IMG/VR virus record: IMGVR_UViG_3300038393_000879
Length of the DNA: 56,543 nucleotides
Strand: one strand, 5' to 3'
DNA from: a virus
Part shown: positions 21,393-50,238 of the stretch, one piece after another
Numbering within the stretch: the first letter of the stretch is position 1
How the letters are laid out: each line of letters opens with the position of its first letter
Notes under the pieces: generated by a model
The model's input: only the letters and a program-made list of their open reading frames with translations
Databases searched by the model: none
What the model was told of the DNA's origin: nothing
Made by a program: the position numbers and the translations under genes

Positions 21393-22043
21393 TTACCATT
21401 GTAAATTATCGGCGTGTTGCGCTATTTTCCCTCTGAAATTGATATTGAGCGCGCAAACATTTGCGTATTCTTCTGTTTCGAAATGTTTCATATAAGGAAC
21501 AAAACCCGATTTCTTTGGGTCTTTTAAGTCACATTGACCGTCGTGCCCAATCATAATGACCGTGCATGTATCATGTATCCGTGTAAGCACTTTCTTTAGT
21601 TCGCCTCTTGTAAAGTTTTGTGCTTCGTCAATGATCACAGTACAATTTTTAATGTTTGTTCCGCGAGCAAAAATGTGAGATTTCGGATAAACCCATGCTT
21701 GCTTATTTATGAACTCTGGGTCGTCCTCTTTATAGATTGCAAATCGAGGATCCTCACGAATTTCTTTTAGCGCGTCAATCAGCGGGAATAGGTACTCTTG
21801 TTCCTTATCTTCCTGCGTTCCCGGACGGAACCCCATTTCTTTTTCTTGCACCGGAGCAAAAATGTAAACCAACGGTTGGTTTAACAGTTTCGCAGAGGCA
21901 ACCGCGAGCGTTGTTTTTCCTGTCCCAGATTTTGCATTTACAATGGTGAATTTGTAATCAAAAATTGAGTTTACGTACTCCCTTTGTTCGTTTGTTAGTC
22001 GAGGCTCAAACCCAAATAACAAATTATTTTTCGGCAGCGGCAT
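21393..22043 (-). CDS. phoH: PhoH-like ATPase
   Basis: Walker A NAKSGTGKTTLAV; Walker B VIIDEAQN. Confidence 0.8.
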   Translation of the reverse strand: MPLPKNNLLFGFEPRLTNEQREYVNSIFDYKFTIVNAKSGTGKTTLAVASAKLLNQPLVYIFAPVQEKEMGFRPGTQEDKEQEYLFPLIDALKEIREDPRFAIYKEDDPEFINKQAWVYPKSHIFARGTNIKNCTVIIDEAQNFTRGELKKVLTRIHDTCTVIMIGHDGQCDLKDPKKSGFVPYMKHFETEEYANVCALNINFRGKIAQHADNLQW

Positions 22044-22957: not shown

Positions 22958-24305
22958 TCAACGAATTGGACATACCCCTGAAAGGCACGAAGCGTCTGAA
23001 CCTAAATCGAAATCCGTTTCTACCGTTTCAAATTGTTCTAATAGTTTTGGATCAAACGGCTTCATTTGTGCTTTAAGTGTTTCGTAAGTCTTCTCGTCGC
23101 ATGCTTCGTAAGGTGCTAGTTTGTAAGTTCCACCGTCTAACGCAAGGAATGATACCGCCATGAACTCGTCCCAACGCTCGAATATCTTGTCTTCTAATAG
23201 CTCCCATTCGTGTGGACGAACAGTAATCGTATTTGACGAGTTGTGTTCGGTATAATTCTTTTGGAACATAAAATAAGTATCCAACTGTTCCAGTGCGGTT
23301 ACATCGTCTTTGGTTCTGGTGGAGCCGGATTGTATCGGGAAGTCAATCACGAGTGTTCGTGCATTGGTCCAGTCGCTGCCAACTTCCGGGTTTACATTCC
23401 AGTTTAAGCTCATCGCTACTTTCGCCAGTGGATCATCAGCGTTGATACGAATACGGCGAATATAAATCGGTGAGTGGCTCATGTGAAGACCCGATGAAAC
23501 GCCTCCCATAAGCTGTGAAATCGTGCCCTCTGGCTTGACGGTTGATACTAGCAGCGGTGCAGATACACGAAGCTCGTATGCGTAACGATCCGCCTCTTGA
23601 CGCGCAACTTTGCCGAGTTTCTTCAGTAGCTTCGCTTGTTGTTCGTCGTTATAACCCAGCATAGCGAAAGCGTCTTGAACGCCTGTTAACGATGTGCCGA
23701 GCAACCGGTCACGGTTTTGTTTCTCCGCCCAGTTATACAGCTCCAATTCAACGAGTGTCATACGAAGACAAACGCGTGCTGATAGTTTTTGAGCCTTAAT
23801 TAGTTCACGCTCGTTTAATACATATTTACCATTCTTGTATTCGACGAAAGCTGTTAAATTAACAGTTGATAAGTTACAAGTTTGGTATTTATCGAGGAGA
23901 ATTTCCGCACATGGGTTCATACCTTCGAAGTTCGGGCGGCGTCTGCGTCCCTCTTCCATATTTATAAATCCTGGCTCGCCCTCATTTTTCATCATTAAGA
24001 AAACAAGATGTAAAAACTCGCGGCTTGGCTTTTCATCAAACGCGATAGAGTTATTGCTCATGCGTCTGTGGTGCATTGGACGACCAAAGTTGTAAGGCTG
24101 TTCGCCATTTACCTTTTCGTCATAATGCTTGGTGCCGACTTCATCGAACCAAACAGGAACCGGAATTTCTAATTCGATCATTTTCTGTTTGATTTCTTCG
24201 TGGCGTTCGAATTGTTCCTCCGACCACAAACCGTTAATTCCGTATTTTGCGAACATACTCTCGAAATCATTTGCACTGAATAGGTTAATTTCGGCTGTGC
24301 GTCTT
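22958..24305 (-). CDS. nrdJ: Class II (B12-dependent) ribonucleotide reductase, exon 2
   Basis: Frame reopens as RRTAEINLFSANDFESMFAKYG…; C-terminal CLSGVCPIR. Confidence 0.8.
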
Positions 24306-24491
24306 CATTCAGCCATGTTTCCCGCATTTCTACGAGGTTCGGACTATCGCTTATTCTTCGAATATACGAAGCTCTCAACCGCTTTAGTCTCTCACGCTAG
24401 CATTACCCTTGCGCCCTGTTGCCTACGCCCGAAGCGTTTAGGTTCCAAGTCAATTAGGTCGAGTTTTTAAAGTGGGGCAAGACGACTTTTT
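24306..24491 (-). mobile_element. Group I self-splicing intron (186 nt, no ORF) interrupting nrdJ
   Basis: P1 GUGGGGU/GCCCCAC with a U.G pair at the 5' splice site; P7 GACUA/UAGUC; P8 CUUCG…CGAAG; terminal G; splicing restores the frame. Confidence 0.8.
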
Positions 24492-25402
24492 ACCCCACCA
24501 ACGACAACATTGTTGCCGATTAAGTTGCCCATATCGAGAATTCCGATTGGACGAATTTTTACATAACCGTTTCCGACTTCTTCCCACTTTGGAATTGATG
24601 GGTCAAGCTGGTTTTTTAATACCTGGTCAAACCCTTCGAACATTTCCTTTAGCGGCTCCGGTCCTGAAGCGGTTCCTCCGAAAGTCTTTAGGCGCTCACC
24701 CTTTGGACGAACAGAGTTGAAATTTATCTTGATTGTGTGGATATGCTCGTATTCTTTTTCAGATAAAATCATTAAATAATTATCGAGCGCTTGGCACCAA
24801 CCCTCTTTACTATCTCCAACAAAGATTTTCGCGTATCCATTTCCGAGATCCTGCAGTTCTGTTTTGTGTAAGCGCTCGTGTTTTTCAACCGGATTGTATT
24901 CTGATAGAATTAAATCCACATTGTTACGAATTGGTGCGAGTTTGTCGATAACTTCGAATGTTGTCTTAAAACCTACGCCTGTCCCAACGAGCAATAAATA
25001 AAATAACTGCGCAAGGTCGTTCCATTTCTCGATGTTTAGGAATGAACAGTTAAAGTTCGCAAGCGGATACTTACGCGCAACGCTGTTTTCATCGCTGGAA
25101 CCAACCCAAAGTGTACGCCCTGAAACGCTTTGACGCAGATTGAACATGTTTTCAAACAATAGTTTGGCTTCTCGTTCTAGCGCCTTCTTATCTGGTTTGT
25201 AACCAATCTTACGCAGGTGCTCTTCCGCTAGTGAAATATTGTAATCAGCGGCTCTTGCTGCGGTTTCTTTCCATGTTTCGCGTCGTCCCGCCTCCGGTAG
25301 CCAACGGGAATAAGTTCTGTAAAATACGAATTTCCCAAGCTCGTTCATGTGCGCCGGGAACCCCTCAAATTTGTTTAAATATTTTTCCGGTAAAAACTTC
25401 AT
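24492..25402 (-). CDS. nrdJ: Class II ribonucleotide reductase, exon 1
   Basis: MKFLPEKYLNKF…FYRTYSRW…; ends …NNVVVGGV at the splice site. Confidence 0.8.
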
Positions 25403-41058: not shown

Positions 41059-41102
41059 ATAACACCCCTTTCTATAATTCTATTTCTTTTGTGCTCTCCT
41101 AA

Positions 41103-41130
41103 ACTATAGCACAATGGAAAAGTTTGTCAA
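41103..41130 (-). promoter_or_regulatory. Sigma-A-type early promoter
   Basis: aaaaagtgTTTGACAa-16 nt-TATAGT on the - strand. Confidence 0.6.
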
Positions 41131-43835: not shown

Positions 43836-43967
43836 ATTTTCAGGGGTAGTTTTATATATATATATAATATTCAGCAAAAAGTTCCGCGTGCGCCTCCTCA
43901 CAGTTTCCGCAGATTTCCGCGAATTCAAAAAGTCAGATTTTCAGGGGTAGTTTATATATATATATAT
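43836..43967. repeat. Two ~31-bp direct repeats ATTTTCAGGGGTAGTTT(T)-(TA)n, 101 bp apart, with three TTCCGC boxes between them
   Basis: Copies at 43836-43866 and 43937-43967 read directly; the region has no convincing ORF. Confidence 0.8.
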
Positions 43968-44059
43968 TTTATGTTTGGCTTTTGGTTGGCTAAAAGTCGG
44001 CGGAGTTGGTTCGAATTTTTCCCGGGTGCGTGCTTCGCGTGTGACGCGATCGCGTGACG

Positions 44060-44093
44060 AAAAAAAAAGACCGGCGCCGCGTTGGCTGCCGGT
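44060..44093 (-). terminator. Rho-independent terminator ending the ribozyme operon
   Basis: ACCGGC-N12-GCCGGU followed by U9 on the - strand. Confidence 0.75.
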
Positions 44094-44268
44094 TATGCTT
44101 CGATTAGTTCGCGCGGTTGCGCTGCTTCCGTTTCTTCTTCGTCTGCTATCCATCGGGTGACGATTTCGACGCCTTCGCCGTTCCGTTTAATTTCGATAAA
44201 CTCGAAACGCTTCCCCCAGTTGTTCGAAAAATAAATTTTTCCTGTTTCGTATCCTAGATAATTTTTCA
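44093..44268 (-). pseudogene. Small gene with an apparent frameshift (or recoding, or a homopolymer sequencing error)
   Basis: ATG at 44268 after ggagggg gives 40 aa and stops at 44146; the -1 frame continues …WGKRFEFIEIKRNGEGVEIVTRW… to a TAA at 44093, right at the terminator. Confidence 0.4.
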
Positions 44269-44289
44269 TGCTATCCCCTCCCCTTGTTT

Positions 44290-44493
44290 TTAAAAAAGTA
44301 TATCTAATAAAAAGTTTTTTGTTTCTTCTAGTGCTGTGATTTTTCCGAGTTGGTACGCCTTCGAGTGTTTTTCGTTGTCGTTTAGTTGGCGGCTGTTTTC
44401 GATTTCGTTTATTTTCTTAACGATTGTTTTTAGTTCCTCAAGTTCCTTTTCAATTTGGAAAATTTTATTTTTTATAGTTTGGAAATTTTTCAT
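44290..44493 (-). CDS. Hypothetical coiled-coil protein (67 aa)
   Basis: ataggagggataaaATG at 44493. Confidence 0.55.
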   Translation of the reverse strand: MKNFQTIKNKIFQIEKELEELKTIVKKINEIENSRQLNDNEKHSKAYQLGKITALEETKNFLLDILF

Positions 44494-44544
44494 TTTATCC
44501 CTCCTATGGGTCGCCGGCTGTAACCGGTGGGAAAATTGAAACAT

Positions 44545-44620
44545 CCCCAGACCGTCGAGAGGTTTTTTCGTTCCTCTCTAGGTTTCGGCTCGCGGTTTCT
44601 GCGCTTGCCTCTTCAGTGGG
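44545..44620 (-). ncRNA. Type I hammerhead ribozyme, copy 1
   Basis: CCCA-CUGAAGA-GGC..GCC-GAAA-CCUAGAGAGG..CCUCUCGACGG-UC|UGGGG; predicted cleavage between 44550 and 44549. Confidence 0.85.
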
Positions 44621-44623
44621 TTT

Positions 44624-45154
44624 TTATTTCTGCCGGTCCGTCCAGTCCTTGCCGGGTCCGGTTGTACCGATTATTATATACGGCTTGCCGCTCGGTTGGT
44701 TGTTTCCGCTATCGAGAAACGAAGAACCGCCGCCAAACTCTTTTACGCTGTCTTCTATTTCTGCGCTGTTTGTGCTGTCTTCTGCGTCTCCGGTCGATTT
44801 CTTCGCCGTCGTGCTCGTTCCGTTTGCTTCCGCTAGTTTGTCCGCTATAAATTGCTTTACGGCTGCATTTAGTGCCGGATTTAGCGGTATTTTTTTATCT
44901 GGTTTTACCGGGTGCAGCCTTTCGCGTTCCTCTTCTTTTTCCGTTAATTCTACCGCTAGTTTTTCCCGTTCTGCCTCGTGCTGTTCCATTTCTTTATATA
45001 GCCAATTATGGAAAGTTCGAGACGGTGCGGCGGTTTGTGTTGCCGTTTGTTTGGCGGTGGGTTCCGGTGGTTTCGTGTGCAGCGTGTCAACTATCATGAA
45101 ACACGCGAGAAATAAAACCGCGAAACCTGCGCCGCTCTTGCGTTTGGTTTCCAT
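44624..45154 (-). CDS. Putative lipoprotein / secreted protein
   Basis: N-terminus AVLFLAC (lipobox-like); RBS aggaggtga. Confidence 0.55.
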   Translation of the reverse strand: METKRKSGAGFAVLFLACFMIVDTLHTKPPEPTAKQTATQTAAPSRTFHNWLYKEMEQHEAEREKLAVELTEKEEERERLHPVKPDKKIPLNPALNAAVKQFIADKLAEANGTSTTAKKSTGDAEDSTNSAEIEDSVKEFGGGSSFLDSGNNQPSGKPYIIIGTTGPGKDWTDRQK

Positions 45155-45200
45155 TTCGTCACCTCCTATGTGCCGGCGGTGGTTATGCCGGTGGGATTTT

Positions 45201-45281
45201 CCCAGACCGTCGGAAAGTCGCGCGGGGCGTTTCTTCCCTAGGTTTCGCCGGTGGTTCCGTTCCTTCCGGCTCTTCAGTGGG
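45201..45281 (-). ncRNA. Type I hammerhead ribozyme, copy 2
   Basis: CCCA-CUGAAGA-GCCGG..CCGGC-GAAA-CCUAGGGAAG..CUUUCCGACGG-UC|UGGG; predicted cleavage between 45205 and 45204. Confidence 0.85.
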
Positions 45282-45288
45282 TGGGGTG

Positions 45289-46071
45289 TTACTCGTATTT
45301 CTGTAACGCTGTTTGTAATGCTTTTAATAGTTTAGCGTCTGCCTTTACTTCTTCGATTGTTAAGTCTAGGGCGTCGAGTGTGTCGTCTATGTCGTTTGTG
45401 TAGCCGTATTCGTGGTTTTCTAATTCGTAAGAAAACATATGTAATAAATATTTTTCATCTTTTCGCGCTTCTGCTTCTTCTGCTTCGAATTTGTCTAACA
45501 TTTCTTTAAATTTTGCGCTGTCGTCTCTACGGTAGTAACCGCCGCCGCCTATGCTATAAATTTTGTTTGTTTCGTCGGGGTTTAATCCTAGTTTTTCCAT
45601 ACCTGCTTTAAATTGTTCATCGCTAAAGGCGAAGAATAAAGGAAAATTATTAAATTCGTCTTGCTGCTTTTGTTTTAATTCGTAGTATGTGTTTGGCTCG
45701 TCTTCGTGTTCCATGATTTCCTCGAGTTCCGCGTCGTATATGTCTATTTTTCCCTCGAGTGCTTCCATGCGTTTCAGAATTTCGTCAATGCTGCTTTTTA
45801 ATTCTTCTTCTACTTCGTGCTCTGTGTAGCTGTCTAAGTTGCCGTATCCGTTAAACTTTACGAAGTCATCGCTATAGTTGTAGTTCCCAAAATGTGCCGC
45901 CCTTACTGCTTCCGCTGGGTTGCTGAAATATAATTCGAAGAAATACTCATCATTTTCATAATATTCTAGGCTATCTAGTGAACCGTCATAACCGTTGATT
46001 TGTGAAACGATTTCTTTTAGTGTTTCAGTATTTTCTAATAGGTATTTTTTAATTTCGTTAAAGTTTTTCAT
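45289..46071 (-). CDS. Acidic hypothetical protein (260 aa)
   Basis: ataggagggaaccaaaaATG; D/E-rich. Confidence 0.6.
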   Translation of the reverse strand: MKNFNEIKKYLLENTETLKEIVSQINGYDGSLDSLEYYENDEYFFELYFSNPAEAVRAAHFGNYNYSDDFVKFNGYGNLDSYTEHEVEEELKSSIDEILKRMEALEGKIDIYDAELEEIMEHEDEPNTYYELKQKQQDEFNNFPLFFAFSDEQFKAGMEKLGLNPDETNKIYSIGGGGYYRRDDSAKFKEMLDKFEAEEAEARKDEKYLLHMFSYELENHEYGYTNDIDDTLDALDLTIEEVKADAKLLKALQTALQKYE

Positions 46072-46171
46072 TTTTGGTTCCCTCCTATGGGTGCCCCGCC
46101 GTTTTGTCGGCGTCGGGTTTCGGTTTTATCGTAAGACCGAAAAGAGCCGGTTTTTTCTTGCTTCTATAATC

Positions 46172-46199
46172 AATATAATCAATAATTTTGAATTGTCAA
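46172..46199 (-). promoter_or_regulatory. Internal sigma-A-type promoter downstream of hammerhead copy 3
   Basis: aaaaagtgTTTGACAa-16 nt-TATATT. Confidence 0.5.
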
Positions 46200-46234
46200 A
46201 CACTTTTTTAATTATTTTGTGTTTGTGGGTAACG

Positions 46235-46298
46235 CCCAGACCGTCGAACCGTTTCCGGCTCTAGGTTTCGCCTCGATTTTCACGGGCTCATCAGTGGG
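46235..46298 (-). ncRNA. Type I hammerhead ribozyme, copy 3
   Basis: CCCA-CUGAUGA-GCC..GGC-GAAA-CCUAGAGCCG-GAAA-CGGUUCGACGG-UC|UGGG; predicted cleavage between 46239 and 46238. Confidence 0.85.
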
Positions 46299-46301
46299 TT
46301 T

Positions 46302-46481
46302 TCATATAACATACCAAACTATAAATAAATTTTCTTTTCCGTCTGTGCTGCTCCACGGCGTATAAAGTGCCGCGTGGTTTTTTCTAACGTATCGGCTCGC
46401 CGCCTTGTTTGTGTTTTCGCAAAATGTTTTTGCCTGCTCTTCTGTATTGAAAAATTTAAATGTTTTTCTATATTTATTCAT
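46302..46481 (-). CDS. Small protein (59 aa); not in the supplied ORF track
   Basis: Its ATG overlaps the upstream stop; MNKYRKTFKFFNTEEQAKTF…. Confidence 0.5.
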   Translation of the reverse strand: MNKYRKTFKFFNTEEQAKTFCENTNKAASRYVRKNHAALYTPWSSTDGKENLFIVWYVI

Positions 46482-46713
46482 TTTCTAACACCTCCATTTT
46501 TAAAATAATGTTTAAAATTTCGTTTAATTCTGCTTTATTGTATTTGTTCATTATCGGTTTTTCACAATTAAAATAAATTTGTTTTATTTCTAAAGTTATT
46601 GGATCGATTAAAACGCTGTAGATTTCGCCTTTTTCTATTTCTACGATTGCCAAACCGTCGACTGTTCCGTAATGGCTGATATTATCGAAATTTTTATAAA
46701 ATGCTTTTTTCAT
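46474..46713 (-). CDS. Hypothetical protein
   Basis: 79-aa ORF; RBS aggtgaaaac. Confidence 0.55.
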   Translation of the reverse strand: MKKAFYKNFDNISHYGTVDGLAIVEIEKGEIYSVLIDPITLEIKQIYFNCEKPIMNKYNKAELNEILNIILKMEVLENE

Positions 46714-46774
46714 GTTTTCACCTGTTAACCTCTCCGAGAGTTTGAAAAACTCGGGGGCGGGATTTATTGCGCTT

Positions 46775-46847
46775 CCCGGACCGTCGAGGGGCTCGCCTTT
46801 TGGCGTCTTCCTCTAGGTTTCGACGCTTGCGGCGTCTCATCAGCGGG
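46775..46847 (-). ncRNA. Type I hammerhead ribozyme, copy 4
   Basis: CCCG-CUGAUGA-GACGC-CGCAA-GCGUC-GAAA-CCUAGAGG..CCUCGACGG-UC|CGGG; predicted cleavage between 46779 and 46778. Confidence 0.88.
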
Positions 46848-46850
46848 TTT

Positions 46851-47141
46851 TTAAAAATCGTTTAAAAATTGTTGTTTTCTTTCTGCTAAAACCTGGATAT
46901 AGTTTTCAGCGTATTTTTTTTGTGTTAGTAAATAGCTATCCTCTAGGTCGTGCAGTTGGTGACTATAGCAGAACCAAACGAGTTCGACGAGTGCCACGAG
47001 TTCCTTTTTGTTCGCAATCTGTAAGCCAAACTTTAAGGCGTCAACTCTGCGGAAAAGTTCGTCTTTCGTTGTAAATTCTAACTTGTGCCCCACTAGTTCC
47101 ATACCGATATAATTTAATGTTTGAAGTTCGTTCTTTTTCAT
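46851..47141 (-). CDS. Hypothetical protein
   Basis: 96-aa ORF; RBS gaggtgaaaa. Confidence 0.55.
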   Translation of the reverse strand: MKKNELQTLNYIGMELVGHKLEFTTKDELFRRVDALKFGLQIANKKELVALVELVWFCYSHQLHDLEDSYLLTQKKYAENYIQVLAERKQQFLNDF

Positions 47142-47206
47142 TTTTTTTCACCTCGTGAACCGTGCCAGCCTTTAAAAAACTAGCCGGAGGGGTCTCAAAA
47201 TCTGCG

Positions 47207-47281
47207 CCCCAGACCGTCGAGGCGTTGCCGTTACGCTTGCCTCTAGGTTTCGAAACGCCGCCGCGTTTCTCGTCAGTGGGA
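47207..47281 (-). ncRNA. Type I hammerhead ribozyme, copy 5
   Basis: UCCCA-CUGACGA-GAAACGC-GGCG-GCGUUUC-GAAA-CCUAGAGGC..GCCUCGACGG-UC|UGGGG; predicted cleavage between 47212 and 47211. Confidence 0.88.
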
Positions 47282-47608
47282 TTTTTTAACTCTGTAGACT
47301 GCTACTTTATACTCGGTCATGGGTTCCAGTTCGTAACCGTTCAAGCCGCCGCTTTTTTCAATTTTATTTATCAGCGCGTCGCTGCTGTGGTCTCCGTCGC
47401 GGTCCTCGAAAATTAAAACCTCGTTTTCGCTTGCGTTCATACCGTAAAATCTATTGACGCGCTGCACTGCTTCGCCTTCGTGAAACTCGAGAACCGTCTT
47501 TAACTCGCTCGGCTCTATGTCCAGTGACGCCCATAACTTGCGGTCCGCTGCGCTCATTTTTGGATTTACTAACTTTTCAATTTTATTTTTTAGCTGTTCG
47601 ATTTTCAT
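47273..47608 (-). CDS. Hypothetical protein, first gene of the ribozyme operon
   Basis: 111-aa ORF; RBS agggaggtcg; its UGA stop lies inside the ribozyme CUGA core. Confidence 0.6.
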   Translation of the reverse strand: MKIEQLKNKIEKLVNPKMSAADRKLWASLDIEPSELKTVLEFHEGEAVQRVNRFYGMNASENEVLIFEDRDGDHSSDALINKIEKSGGLNGYELEPMTEYKVAVYRVKKSH

Positions 47609-47633
47609 ATTATCGACCTCCCTTGTCCCTTAC

Positions 47634-47662
47634 TTTATAAATCCATTGTTTTTATTTGTCAA
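47634..47662 (-). promoter_or_regulatory. Sigma-A-type early promoter of the ribozyme operon
   Basis: aaaaagtaTTTGACAa-17 nt-TATAAA. Confidence 0.6.
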
Positions 47663-47879
47663 ATACTTTTTTTATTATTTTGTGTTCGGAACGGCGGAAC
47701 CGTTGGAAACACTGGAAAAAATATTTTTCGTTTGTTTTTATATTCTAGTTATCGGAAACAATCGGCGGGAACTTTAGAAAATAATCGGTTATTTTTTGGG
47801 GGACGGTAACAAAAAGAAAAGAAGCAAAAGAAAAAGAAATAACTATATTATATTATACGAGAAAAACAACACCTTAAAT

Positions 47880-48300
47880 TTTTATGGGTGGCGGGGGGTC
47901 TTCGAAAATGTGGCGGTTTATCGTTTTTATTTTCTGGGAAATGGTGGAGAACAGCGGGGAAATTATCGCCGGCATTGTCTCGAATAAATCGGCGGTAACG
48001 TCTAAAGACGTATGGGGAAACGGTGGGGAAATCGTGGGAAATTGTCGGCAATACTGACACGGAAAACCTAACGGAAAAACCTGCGTTTTGGGGTACGTTT
48101 GGGGACATGTAAACAGCCGGCAAATCCGCGCTGTGTCTGGCGTCGGGGGATCGGTTGGGGTTCGCGCTGTGGGTTCGTTGTGGTATCGTTTGGAGCTGCG
48201 TGAAATGGCGTCTGCATGCGCTTGCCGTAACTCGGACGGGGGAGAAGCTGCGGGAAACATTGGGGGTTACGCTGCAGCCCATGGGGGAGTAAGCGCGAAG
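47880..48300. repeat. Non-coding G-run / GGGAAA iteron-like repeat field
   Basis: GGGGAAACGGT-GGGGAAATCGT-GGGAAATTGTC in tandem at 48014-48046, plus many dispersed GGGAAA/CGGAAA and GGGG tracts, all on the + strand. Confidence 0.7.
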
Positions 48301-48740
48301 GCACTTCGAACAACAAAAAAATTATTTATTTCTTGCTGCAAATACGCCGGAACGGGCGGGACGGACACCATTCGTTAGAATTGTGTTTGTGTTTGTTCGC
48401 TGAAACAATCGCCAGACCTTGCGCCGCTTGCGGTTTCTGCTAATTAAAGGGCGAGGGGTACGCCCCCGGTATGCAAGAGCCGCCCCGCCGCCGAACGCGC
48501 AACGCTAAGTGTTTGACGCACGTTCTCATCGAAATTTCAATGTTGGAGTAACGCCGTTCGATCGTCGATTGTGCGTTGTTCCTGAAGCATAGCTTCGCAT
48601 GCAGGCGTTGTTCATGCGTCAATTTATCGTCTGTTCATACGAGGTTGCCACCCCATCGTGAAAATGTCGTTCCAAAAATTGATGAAATCGCATAAAATTT
48701 CGCGAAAAATTTTTCACAAATACGGGGGTCTGCGTGGCAT

Positions 48741-48965
48741 GGTCGGTAATTAACTTCTGACCTCGATTTATACGTAGATCGGTAATTCATTTCTTATCCG
48801 AGTATCTTACTACGAATTAGCGTAAGCCCGGTAAATCAACATTTTCAGCGACAGGTCGGAAATTGGTTACAGGTCGGTAAAATATTGCAGGTTACAATAA
48901 TATAATATATATTATTAATTTCTAAAAGATATATAAATAATGGTGACCGGAAATAAACTTCTGAC
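48741..48965. repeat. Six YCGG(T/A)AAW boxes, two AACTTCTGAC boxes and an AT-rich tract (candidate origin)
   Basis: ggtcggtaatt, atcggtaattc, cccggtaaatc, ggtcggaaatt, ggtcggtaaaa, gaccggaaata; AT-only run at 48895-48945. Confidence 0.7.
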
Positions 48966-49066
48966 GTATATAAAACGAGGTAACGCTATAAGTGATACAT
49001 ACGTTATTACCTTAGAAACATTAAATAAACGCTTATGCGTTTATACACGCTTTAACACAGAACGAT

Positions 49067-49616: not shown

Positions 49617-50238
49617 ACGATCACCTCCGATTTATTTAACAATAAACCGGTTTTAAAATCTGTCAACACATAAATTCCGATCACATCGTGGATTACATTA
49701 TGTTTGTGAAATTGTGTTCACGCTCGACCTTTCCAGAGAGAAGGGCGCAGCCCCAAAAAGCAGTATTTGAAAAAAAATAAAAAAATATGAAAAAAGTTTA
49801 AAAATCTTGCAGCCCAAAACTGACATATTGCTTATTTAATAGTGTAGGGGTAAAAATCATAACGCGGAACCGACGAATTGCAGGCGCTTGCCATTTGGCA
49901 TTCACTCTCGGTTCCCACAAAAAATGGAGCGTGTTAATTTGAAGTTCATCGACCTGATCTCGAAAGTAACATTTAAAAACGGCGAACCAGAACCAAACAA
50001 TAAAGTACATAAAATGGTTGTCGCAGCAATCGCTCGACACTCCAAATAATTCATTTGAGTTGCTTCGAATGAAAACCACCGGGAGCTACGGCTCCCACCC
50101 CATTTTATTCACGCAATATTTTGATCAACAGTATCACATATAAACCGAGAAAGCCAAACGGTAAAACGAAATGAGTAAGGAATTCTTTCATTTTGCACCC
50201 CGTTATTTAGTATTCCCAAAATTTATATTTTCATATTA

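Follow-up and report, generated by a model that had tools for sequence, protein, structure and literature searches.

Clusters of hammerhead ribozymes are known from prophages. Perreault et al. (2011; PLoS Comput Biol, PMC3088659, Fig. 3) found multiple hammerheads flanking individual genes in prophage transcripts, proposed that they process the RNA into operon- or gene-length mRNAs, and reported that three tandem arrangements cut in vitro and one in vivo. Here we describe five hammerhead motifs in a viral DNA of 56,543 nucleotides (nt), IMG/VR record IMGVR_UViG_3300038393_000879; "the window" below means this whole stretch. As in the clusters of Perreault et al., several hammerheads on one strand of phage DNA surround genes of unknown function, singly or in short blocks, whereas here five copies fall within 2.7 kb, all are of type I, stem I has 4 base pairs (bp), stem III carries a CCUAG/CGAYGG interruption, and the phage is new. 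An earlier reading of the letters alone (the sequence-only reading) had set the array apart from the hammerhead motifs that computational searches had found in bacteria and prophages. That novelty was overstated, since clusters have been both reported and shown to cleave (PMC3088659). The locus adds a good example to a kind of system already known: a well-formed five-copy array in a new phage, belonging to a type I sub-class that Rfam misses.

Three other systems offer useful comparisons. The early precursor RNA of phage T7 contains five RNase III signals and is cut into individual mRNAs with structured ends (PMC3867540). The parallel is functional, with no sequence or structural relationship: host RNase III cuts double-stranded hairpins in T7 and leaves a 5'-phosphate and a 3'-OH, whereas the window RNA would cut itself and leave a 5'-OH and a cyclic phosphate. 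RiboJ, which joins the sTRSV hammerhead to a 23-nt hairpin and increases both the mRNA and the protein made from the gene behind it (PMC6206723), has the same order of parts as the window elements, namely hammerhead, hairpin and ribosome-binding site (RBS). It is, however, an engineered device built on a type III satellite-RNA ribozyme, and its hairpin does not compete with a ribozyme stem, unlike the hairpin formed from a stem I strand in the window. The glmS ribozyme, too, is a self-cleaving RNA in a bacterial mRNA leader, with the fate of its 5'-OH end set by RNase J1 (PMC10810187), but it has another fold, uses a metabolite cofactor, occurs as a single copy and destabilizes its own mRNA. 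The role of bacterial hammerheads and ribozymes is still largely elusive, according to Weinberg et al. (2019, PMC6765202), who repeat the idea of polycistronic processing; our literature searches found no later paper that settles the role of bacterial or phage hammerheads.

Five type I hammerhead motifs at consecutive gene junctions

Reading the - strand of positions 43900-47800, together with a regular-expression scan of both strands, places five elements at consecutive gene junctions, all on the - strand and within 1 nt of where the sequence-only reading had put them (Table 1). We number them 1 to 5 by rising coordinate. Every copy has the layout CCCR-CUGANGA-(stem II)-CGAAACCUAG-(distal stem III)-CGACGGUC/YGGG, where the slash marks the predicted cut, and type I topology, in which stem I is open and the other two stems are capped. 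Each of the five has the 11 invariant core nucleotides complete. The core strand C3-U4-G5-A6-N7-G8-A9 reads CUGAAGA in copies 1 and 2, CUGAUGA in copies 3 and 4, and CUGACGA in copy 5, while G12-A13-A14, the A15.1-U16.1 pair and H17 are present throughout as GAAA..GGUC, with GUC as the cleavage triplet. The pairs next to the core that Perreault et al. (2011) used as a criterion are likewise intact in all copies: G10.1-C11.1, A2.1-U1.1 (G-C in copy 4) and A15.1-U16.1. The earlier description of the core, in which C17 is invariant and only N7 varies, is therefore correct for all five, and the 5'-OH ends it predicted are rightly placed given the C17 positions (both in Table 1).

Its description of the helices needs correction. 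Stem II is broken in copies 1 and 3 (GGC..GCG/CGC..GCC and GCC-CG/CG-A-GGC, respectively) and is there none of the three perfect stems given earlier, and stem III consists of 3 bp, a conserved interruption (a U-A pair, an A.G mismatch and a bulged C) and a variable distal helix of 4-6 bp. The interruption has the sequence CCUAG/CGAYGG in all five copies (for example 44551-44558 with 44578-44585 in copy 1) and in the relatives on contigs L001-L038 described below. Its bulged base is a pyrimidine, and two of the relatives (L003 and L033) read UAA/GAU there. As a lead only, the interruption resembles the UAA/GAN internal-loop motif of large RNAs, which provides bends and long-range contacts there.

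The motif is rare by chance. GAAACCTAG occurs five times in the window, each time inside an element, and CGACGGTC occurs in the five elements and once more at 21543. A type I descriptor that contains nothing particular to this family, and asks for the core, a stem I of 4 bp, 3 bp or more in each of the other stems, A15.1-U16.1 and H17, matches exactly these five on both strands of the window, compared with a mean of 0.01 and a maximum of 1 in 100 dinucleotide shuffles. When each element is folded alone and without constraints, the minimum free energy structure is the hammerhead three-way junction in five of five cases, at -20 to -27 kcal/mol. The mean column identity of the copies, flanks included, is 58%.

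Two other interpretations of the repeats were rejected. A stem I extended beyond 4 bp through an internal loop fails because the flanks are not consistently complementary between copies. An origin as tandem repeats or satellite sequence does not fit either: the spacers are unique coding genes, and what the copies have in common is confined to the core and the stem III base.

Relatives, covariation and the Rfam models

We searched three collections for relatives with an exact pattern taken from the window, which fixes only the core and the base of stem III. It was found on 12 viral, 5 genome and 21 metagenome contigs. The genome contigs comprise metagenome-assembled genomes (MAGs) of Selenomonadaceae, a Cohnella sp. 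and one actinomycete MAG, the last being a probable false positive with the core CCAGAUGA. Stem I lies outside the search pattern and is complementary in 13 of 13 matches on viral contigs, one of them with a single mismatch, even though the 5' strand CCCA is replaced by CGCC, CCGC, CCAG, CCAC or CUCA. In a MAFFT alignment of the five window copies with 12 unrelated viral ones, 97.6% of the cells are paired, compared with 31-49% in slid registers, and eight pairs are changed on both sides. The covariation score of this alignment is 0.614 against 0.126 for shuffles, none of which (0 of 500) scored as high. A second, independent set, which consists of 34 distinct sequences from genomes and metagenomes and excludes the window, gives 94.4% paired cells and 11 pairs changed on both sides, in an alignment that leans towards structure as it was fitted to a covariance model; slid registers over both alignments give 27-49%.

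Covariance models lead to the same five elements. Model R1, built from the MAFFT alignment, finds only these copies in the window and additional same-strand copies in other contigs; run over the window with its filters off, it adds no weaker copies. Model R2, built from the 34-sequence set only and hence free of window sequence, scores the five copies at 47-56 bits (E of about 1e-9 to 1e-11) and has no other match in the window. The architecture recurs, with covarying helices, in more than 50 relatives on viral, genome and metagenome contigs. By sequence and structure, the five elements are very probably true hammerheads.

The possibility that they are something else, a repeated intergenic hairpin (for instance a site for a protein, or an attenuator) whose likeness to a hammerhead is accidental, is suggested by the failure of every Rfam hammerhead model to reach threshold and by cleavage being a prediction. 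It is hardly credible in view of the 11 core nucleotides, A15.1-U16.1, C17, G10.1-C11.1 and three covarying helices in five of five copies, a chance expectation of 0.01 per window, more than 50 relatives, and the co-occurrence of one relative with an Rfam-validated hammerhead.

The Rfam outcome needs explanation, since a scan with Rfam covariance models was the check that the sequence-only reading had proposed, and it came out negative: no family of any kind reaches its gathering score in the whole window. At E <= 1 the window gives two non-ribozyme matches at chance level, and no twister, pistol, hatchet or hepatitis delta virus (HDV)-like element. A permissive scan of the 3.9-kb region gives two weak matches, leaving three copies without any: Hammerhead_3 (RF00008) on copy 3 at 23.3 bits against a gathering score of 48.5, in the wrong circular permutation, and RAGATH-1-hammerhead (RF03152) on copy 4 at 19.8 bits against 56.3. 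In our reading the models have a blind spot here, and their failure does not count against the motif: on the 12 viral contigs scanned (L001-L012) they recognize none of the relatives either. On one of these, L012, a missed relative sits 1.1 kb from a Hammerhead_3 match of 52.7 bits on the same strand. The Rfam families Hammerhead_1 (RF00163), Hammerhead_3 and RAGATH-1 share the catalytic core and the three-helix junction with the window elements, and RAGATH-1 is of type I as well and tied to ribozyme-rich, phage-like gene neighbourhoods; the window elements differ in their 4-bp stem I, in the CCUAG/CGAYGG interruption and in scores far below gathering.

Arrays on one strand occur elsewhere, with three copies in each of L002, L010, L023 and L035 and four in L032; in certain copies of these arrays stem III is uninterrupted. 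In L032 and L023 each ribozyme begins at or overlaps the stop codon of the upstream open reading frame (ORF), and the UAA stops of L032 fall within stem I (UUAA). The copies of an array have almost the same stem I but each its own stems II and III: in the window CCCA/UGGG is found in four of five copies and CCCG/CGGG in one, and the same near-constancy of stem I is seen in L002, L023, L035, L032, L019 and L037. On the - strand of L012, the type III hammerhead known to Rfam (1485-1542) lies upstream of the type I CCUAG variant (323-386), so arrays can mix hammerhead topologies.

The most informative relative is a diverged version of the locus itself. A search of viral contigs by protein for relatives of the 260-aa (amino acid) gene E found none; a homologue of this protein at 89% identity led to contig L042 (JGI 3300037471), which has four ribozymes at the junctions equivalent to those of copies 1-4. 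Nearby coding DNA is about 92% identical. Copy 3 is identical in L042, copy 2 differs only in the distal loop of stem III, and copy 1 has a single C-to-U change that turns a G-C pair into G.U. In copy 4 the core, stems I and II and the proximal part of stem III are unchanged, and the distal hairpin is swapped for another one that is still paired. Judged from sequence, these changes have the pattern expected of an RNA structure under selection independently of the adjoining genes. Compared with window positions 44484-47691 the contig is a mosaic, where two unrelated genes that overlap take the place of genes A and B and of copy 5. Homology restarts 5 nt before copy 4, spans the ribozyme, the 5' untranslated region (UTR) and the RBS, and is lost in the next gene. 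There is also an additional 56-aa gene before copy 1.

Two further observations on this comparison may be recorded. The junction of the additional gene reuses the translational-coupling sequence of the gene C/D overlap in the window (46477-46506). Across the region small genes are swapped, inserted or deleted whole, and the modules of ribozyme plus 5' UTR stay at the junctions.

This mosaic allows a reading in which the role at the DNA level comes foremost: the ribozyme-plus-5'UTR modules would serve as short homologies for the exchange of early-gene cassettes, and RNA cleavage would be secondary. The break 5 nt upstream of copy 4, with the module kept and different genes on either side, the gene inserted before copy 1 and the replacement of genes A and B together with copy 5 all agree with it. 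It leaves the invariant catalytic core, the compensatory helix changes and the strand-specific placement unexplained, however, and the shared stretches of DNA are only about 10-25 nt long, so exchange is more likely a side effect than the function. We consider the reading very improbable.

Predicted transcript processing and its alternatives

The five copies part six blocks of one or two genes (genes A to H, Table 1), a division that the sequence-only reading had made and with which independent gene calls on an identical public contig agree. Genes C and D overlap by 8 nt with no ribozyme between them, and there is none between G and H either. The terminator named earlier is a stable hairpin followed by a U tract, and the promoter named with it, P1, is present as well; its -10 hexamer lacks the final T and it was therefore not listed by a consensus scanner. 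What is incomplete is the picture of a single operon behind one promoter, since a second promoter, P2, lies between copy 3 and gene E and is the best consensus match of the region. The two promoters are identical at 25 of 29 positions, from 20 nt upstream of the -35 hexamer to 3 nt past it. No terminator-like site is listed on the - strand between P1 and 44093. From the sequence, the region is thus laid out as two tandem promoter units, with copies 5, 4 and 3 in the P1 unit and copies 2 and 1 in the P2 unit. The UGA stop of gene A (47273-47275) is U4-G5-A6 of the copy 5 core, so a terminating ribosome would sit on the ribozyme; the remaining upstream stop codons lie 3-7 nt before stem I.

P1 and P2 belong to a promoter family on the - strand (46172-46199, 47634-47662 and 41101-41130) with the shared extended context AAAAAAGTRTTTGACAA, and more TTGACA promoters, all leftward, lie at 49666, 49344, 43611 and 40562. 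The window has exactly three instances of the RBS context CAUAGGAGG, where 0.13 would be expected (44500-44508, 45162-45170 and 46081-46089, - strand). These sites precede the genes after P2, copy 2 and copy 1, each with a GC-rich hairpin of the CCGG..CCGG type ahead of it, which makes the 5' UTRs of the P2 unit modular.

A second structure can form just downstream of each predicted cut. The 4 nt 3' of the cut (UGGG, or CGGG in copy 4) are followed, 5-14 nt on, by CCCA (CCCG in copy 4), and in copy 5 GGGG is followed by CCCC. The 5' strand of stem I thus recurs downstream, so the 3' strand of stem I can pair there instead. In 28 of 56 distinct family elements the 5' strand of stem I is repeated exactly within the next 30 nt, compared with 5.8 in shuffled tails (maximum 14 in 2000 shuffles), and because it is seen across at least eight different stem I sequences the competitor hairpin covaries with stem I. 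The tail also contains candidate partners for loop II. Over the 56 elements the longest stretch of loop II that can pair with the 3' tail has a mean of 3.63 nt (permuted tails give 2.86 +/- 0.11), and it reaches at least 4 bp in 26 elements where 11 are expected; covarying pairs in the family include GCGGCU/AGCCGC, GGUC/GACC, UUUGGC/GCCAAA and CACUG/CAGUG. For rapid cutting at the Mg2+ level of a cell, hammerheads need a tertiary contact between stems I and II, either from loop to loop or as a pseudoknot. Pseudoknots are a common way of holding stems I and II together (PMC3088659). A pseudoknot of loop II with the 5' flank was rejected, its mean of 2.63 nt being background, as was the idea that the downstream CCCA is the 2.x strand of a differently permuted hammerhead, since no CUGANGA follows it. 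Term searches of the text of Perreault et al. (PMC3088659) found neither the competitor hairpin nor the constancy of stem I within arrays. These two features and the mosaicism at module boundaries are additions to what is known of such arrays and do not make a new category.

The reading that we prefer, with a probability of roughly 80%, is that the five hammerheads cleave the transcripts of this region and thereby process them. The motif, its fold and covariation, its conservation, its place at gene junctions, the promoters and the terminator are observed, whereas we infer cleavage, its rate, its timing and its effects. Transcripts from P1 (47662) and P2 (46199) would extend to the terminator. 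On leaving the polymerase each ribozyme would fold into the three-way junction of a 4-bp stem I and two capped stems, joined in copy 1 at least by a pseudoknot of loop II with the 3' tail, and the cut would fall after C17 of the GUC triplet. The upstream product would consist of its own gene and a compact ribozyme with a 2',3'-cyclic phosphate end. The downstream product would begin with a 5'-OH, and its first 4 nt would re-pair with the downstream CCCA or CCCG into a 5'-terminal hairpin, 50-70 nt before a strong Shine-Dalgarno sequence. Copy 3 would be the exception, as the start codon there is 167 nt away and P2 lies between; read-through from P1 would be cut at this copy, immediately upstream of P2. 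The long RNA would in this way become six one- or two-gene mRNAs with defined structured ends, whose stability and translation would no longer depend on neighbouring genes or on read-through. One may see the hairpin as trapping the product and protecting its 5' end. Such protection matters in a Bacillota host, since in Bacillus RNase J1 degrades the RNA that glmS self-cleavage leaves with a 5'-OH (PMC10810187).

Several points weigh against this reading. No Rfam hammerhead model reaches its gathering score for any of the five copies, and copy 1 scanned alone at E <= 10 retrieves no Rfam hammerhead model. The invariance of the core and of CCUAG/CGACGG among the relatives is a matter of ascertainment, and the independent evidence lies in the helices only. 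At 4 bp stem I is short, and a nearest-neighbour model in full context, which ignores the tertiary stabilization of hammerheads, favours the competitor hairpin over it by 0.9-6.2 kcal/mol in copies 1-4. The competing strand is transcribed just 5-14 nt after the cut, so constitutive fast cleavage is not assured; together with the short stem I, the preference for the hairpin casts doubt on it and supplies a motive for a switch. A 5-bp match between loop II and the tail (GAAAC/GUUUC) is present in copy 1 only, copies 2-5 having 3 bp or less. The precedent of glmS and RNase J1 implies that cleavage could destabilize the downstream RNA. Finally, both the early timing and the host are deduced from promoter type, position and distant protein matches.

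The energetic preference in copies 1-4 leads directly to the strongest rival, in which cleavage is conditional or deliberately slow, with a competitor strand set against stem I and a terminating ribosome over the ribozyme. The gate could be translation, RNA helicases or other proteins, or folding kinetics, and it would time or ration the processing of the early message. That the hairpin is conserved and covaries with stem I, that it is kept in L042 through a U.G pair and loop-only changes, and that stop codons lie 0-7 nt from stem I or overlap it (in the window, L032 and L023) all speak for such a gate. A product trap and 5'-end protector explains the hairpin equally well, however; in relatives of the CCGC type the 4-mer that recurs shares nucleotides with the strand to which loop II would pair, and the signal may be partly that of the pseudoknot; the energies omit tertiary contacts, as noted; and tandem prophage hammerheads cut efficiently during transcription (PMC3088659). 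We regard conditional cleavage as possible, although clearly the less probable course. Cleavage could instead act as a trigger of decay, its 5'-OH ends feeding RNase J1, with the result that expression would fall from gene to gene of the operon or that the early genes would soon be switched off. RNase J1 of B. subtilis does degrade the glmS 3' fragment (PMC10810187), and the host is probably a member of the Bacillota. What makes a decay trigger improbable is that the new 5' ends can fold at once into a terminal hairpin, followed by more hairpins and a strong AGGAGG-type RBS. Terminal hairpins and strong ribosome-binding sites protect RNA from 5' exonucleolytic attack. A phage would also be unlikely to keep four to five junctions merely to lose the genes downstream of them.

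The near-constant stem I raises a different prospect, already mentioned by Perreault et al. (PMC3088659), that of cleaving and rejoining: any GUC>p 3' end could pair with any UGGG 5'-OH end, giving circular single-gene RNAs or spliced cassettes. Type I topology keeps the entire catalytic architecture on the cyclic-phosphate end, and the sharing of one stem I by copies with different stems II and III, here as in the six arrays named above, is what rejoining would call for. Perreault et al. looked for spliced or circular products and detected none (PMC3088659), a 4-bp stem I with a competitor hairpin favours product release over ligation, and a constant stem I would equally result from duplication or from the three-way constraint of stem I plus hairpin; rejoining is thus quite improbable, if a little less so than a foremost DNA-level role. 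A broader combination, in which the array is a switchable processing system whose 3' and 5'-OH ends are all compatible and yield circular or cassette-skipped mRNAs by ligation, is doubtful. It is suggested by the choice between active and inactive strands, by the stop codons at stem I and by the use of one stem I per array. Processing of the message by five cleaving hammerheads is the reading that we retain.

The locus, its phage and what the array may mean

The coordinates of the ribozymes, hairpins, genes and regulatory sites are collected in Table 1. The genes of the ribozyme region encode small proteins without a known family, except for the families found in the 260-aa protein.

Table 1. 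Features of the ribozyme region and of the ribonucleotide reductase genes, in window coordinates; a predicted cut is given as C17/first nucleotide of the downstream product
Feature	Position	Strand	Remarks
Hammerhead copy 1, type I	44546-44620	-	Stem II interrupted; GAAAC in loop II; predicted cut 44550/44549
Hammerhead copy 2, type I	45201-45281	-	Stem II GCCGG/CCGGC; predicted cut 45205/45204
Hammerhead copy 3, type I	46235-46298	-	Stem I CCCA/UGGG; predicted cut 46239/46238; 55.6 bits (R2, window-free model)
Hammerhead copy 4, type I	46775-46847	-	Stem I CCCG/CGGG (covaries), stem II GACGC/GCGUC; predicted cut 46779/46778
Hammerhead copy 5, type I	47208-47280	-	Stem I CCCA/UGGG, stem II GAAACGC/GCGUUUC; predicted cut 47212/47211; 52.6 bits (R2)
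Copy 1, 3' tail	44528-44549	-	UGGG..CCCA (44528-44531) competitor hairpin; GUUUC (44538-44542) candidate pseudoknot strand
Copy 2, competitor/post-cleavage hairpin	45192-45204	-	UGGG-AAAAU-CCCA; then hairpin CCGGC..GCCGG and RBS CAUAGGAGG
Copy 3, competitor/post-cleavage hairpin	46226-46238	-	UGGG-CGUUA-CCCA
Copy 4, competitor/post-cleavage hairpin	46758-46778	-	CGGG..(13 nt)..CCCG; covaries with copy 4 stem I
Copy 5, predicted start of 3' product	47189-47211	-	GGGG (47207-47210) can pair with CCCC (47189-47192)
Promoter P1	47634-47662	-	TTGACA-17-TATAAA, A-rich upstream; direct reading and regular expression; region kept in L042
Gene A, 111 aa	47273-47608	-	No known family; gene call
Gene B, 96 aa	46851-47141	-	No known family; gene call
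Gene C, 79 aa	46474-46713	-	Gene call
Gene D, 59 aa	46302-46481	-	Gene call
Promoter P2	46172-46199	-	TTGACA-16-TATATT (11/12 consensus); best consensus match of region; kept in L042
Gene E, 260 aa	45289-46071	-	N-terminal phrog_4534, C-terminal DUF7659; family search
Gene F, 176 aa	44624-45154	-	Hydrophobic N-terminal segment; gene call
Gene G, 67 aa	44290-44493	-	Gene call
Gene H, 58 aa	44093-44269	-	Gene call
Intrinsic terminator	44060-44093	-	-17 kcal/mol hairpin, then U9; folding
Ribonucleotide reductase ORF, 311 aa	24467-25402	-	Alpha and insertion domains
Ribonucleotide reductase ORF, 432 aa	22958-24256	-	Barrel domain

The window encodes a terminase, a portal protein, a tape-measure protein, a family A DNA polymerase (PolA), a DnaB-type helicase and a serine recombinase. 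The nearest known polymerase, at 36% identity, is from Paenibacillus phages, and the portal protein matches mostly those of Bacillus and Staphylococcus phages. Among GenBank phages a DNA search gave only weak matches, all within the 260-aa gene; they are to SPO1-like phages of Bacillus and to one phage of Psychrobacillus. Looking up exact proteins led to 100%-identical copies of this phage on public contigs of about 56 kb, which add no comparative information. On its sequence this is a novel tailed phage of about 56 kb with no known close relative among GenBank phages, and its host is probably a member of the Bacillota. The ribozyme genes lie at the upstream end of a long leftward gene block, behind host-type TTGACA promoters, and by promoter type and position this fits an early region.

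Two other parts of the window deserve a short note. Between the ribozyme region and two small leftward genes, about 1.4 kb (47700-49060) are without convincing ORFs; a cluster of TTACCGACC-like repeats is found at 48741-48880, four of them on the - strand within 140 nt, with an AT-rich tract at about 48900-48950. This interval may be a replication origin or a region that binds a regulator. A class II ribonucleotide reductase (- strand, 22958-25402) is split into two ORFs by a gap of 210 nt, in which the Rfam intron models found no match.

Rfam hammerhead models overlook a whole phage-borne sub-class of type I ribozymes, and surveys based on Rfam under-count the ribozymes of phages. The locus could also serve as a clean test bed, with five intact ribozymes, two mapped host-type promoters, one terminator and small genes in 3.6 kb, and with a natural relative (L042) that differs in one junction ribozyme and several genes. 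Two design rules are suggested by it: a competitor or 5'-end hairpin is formed from a stem I strand, and one stem I sequence is used per array. Both could explain how the products of cleavage are released and protected.

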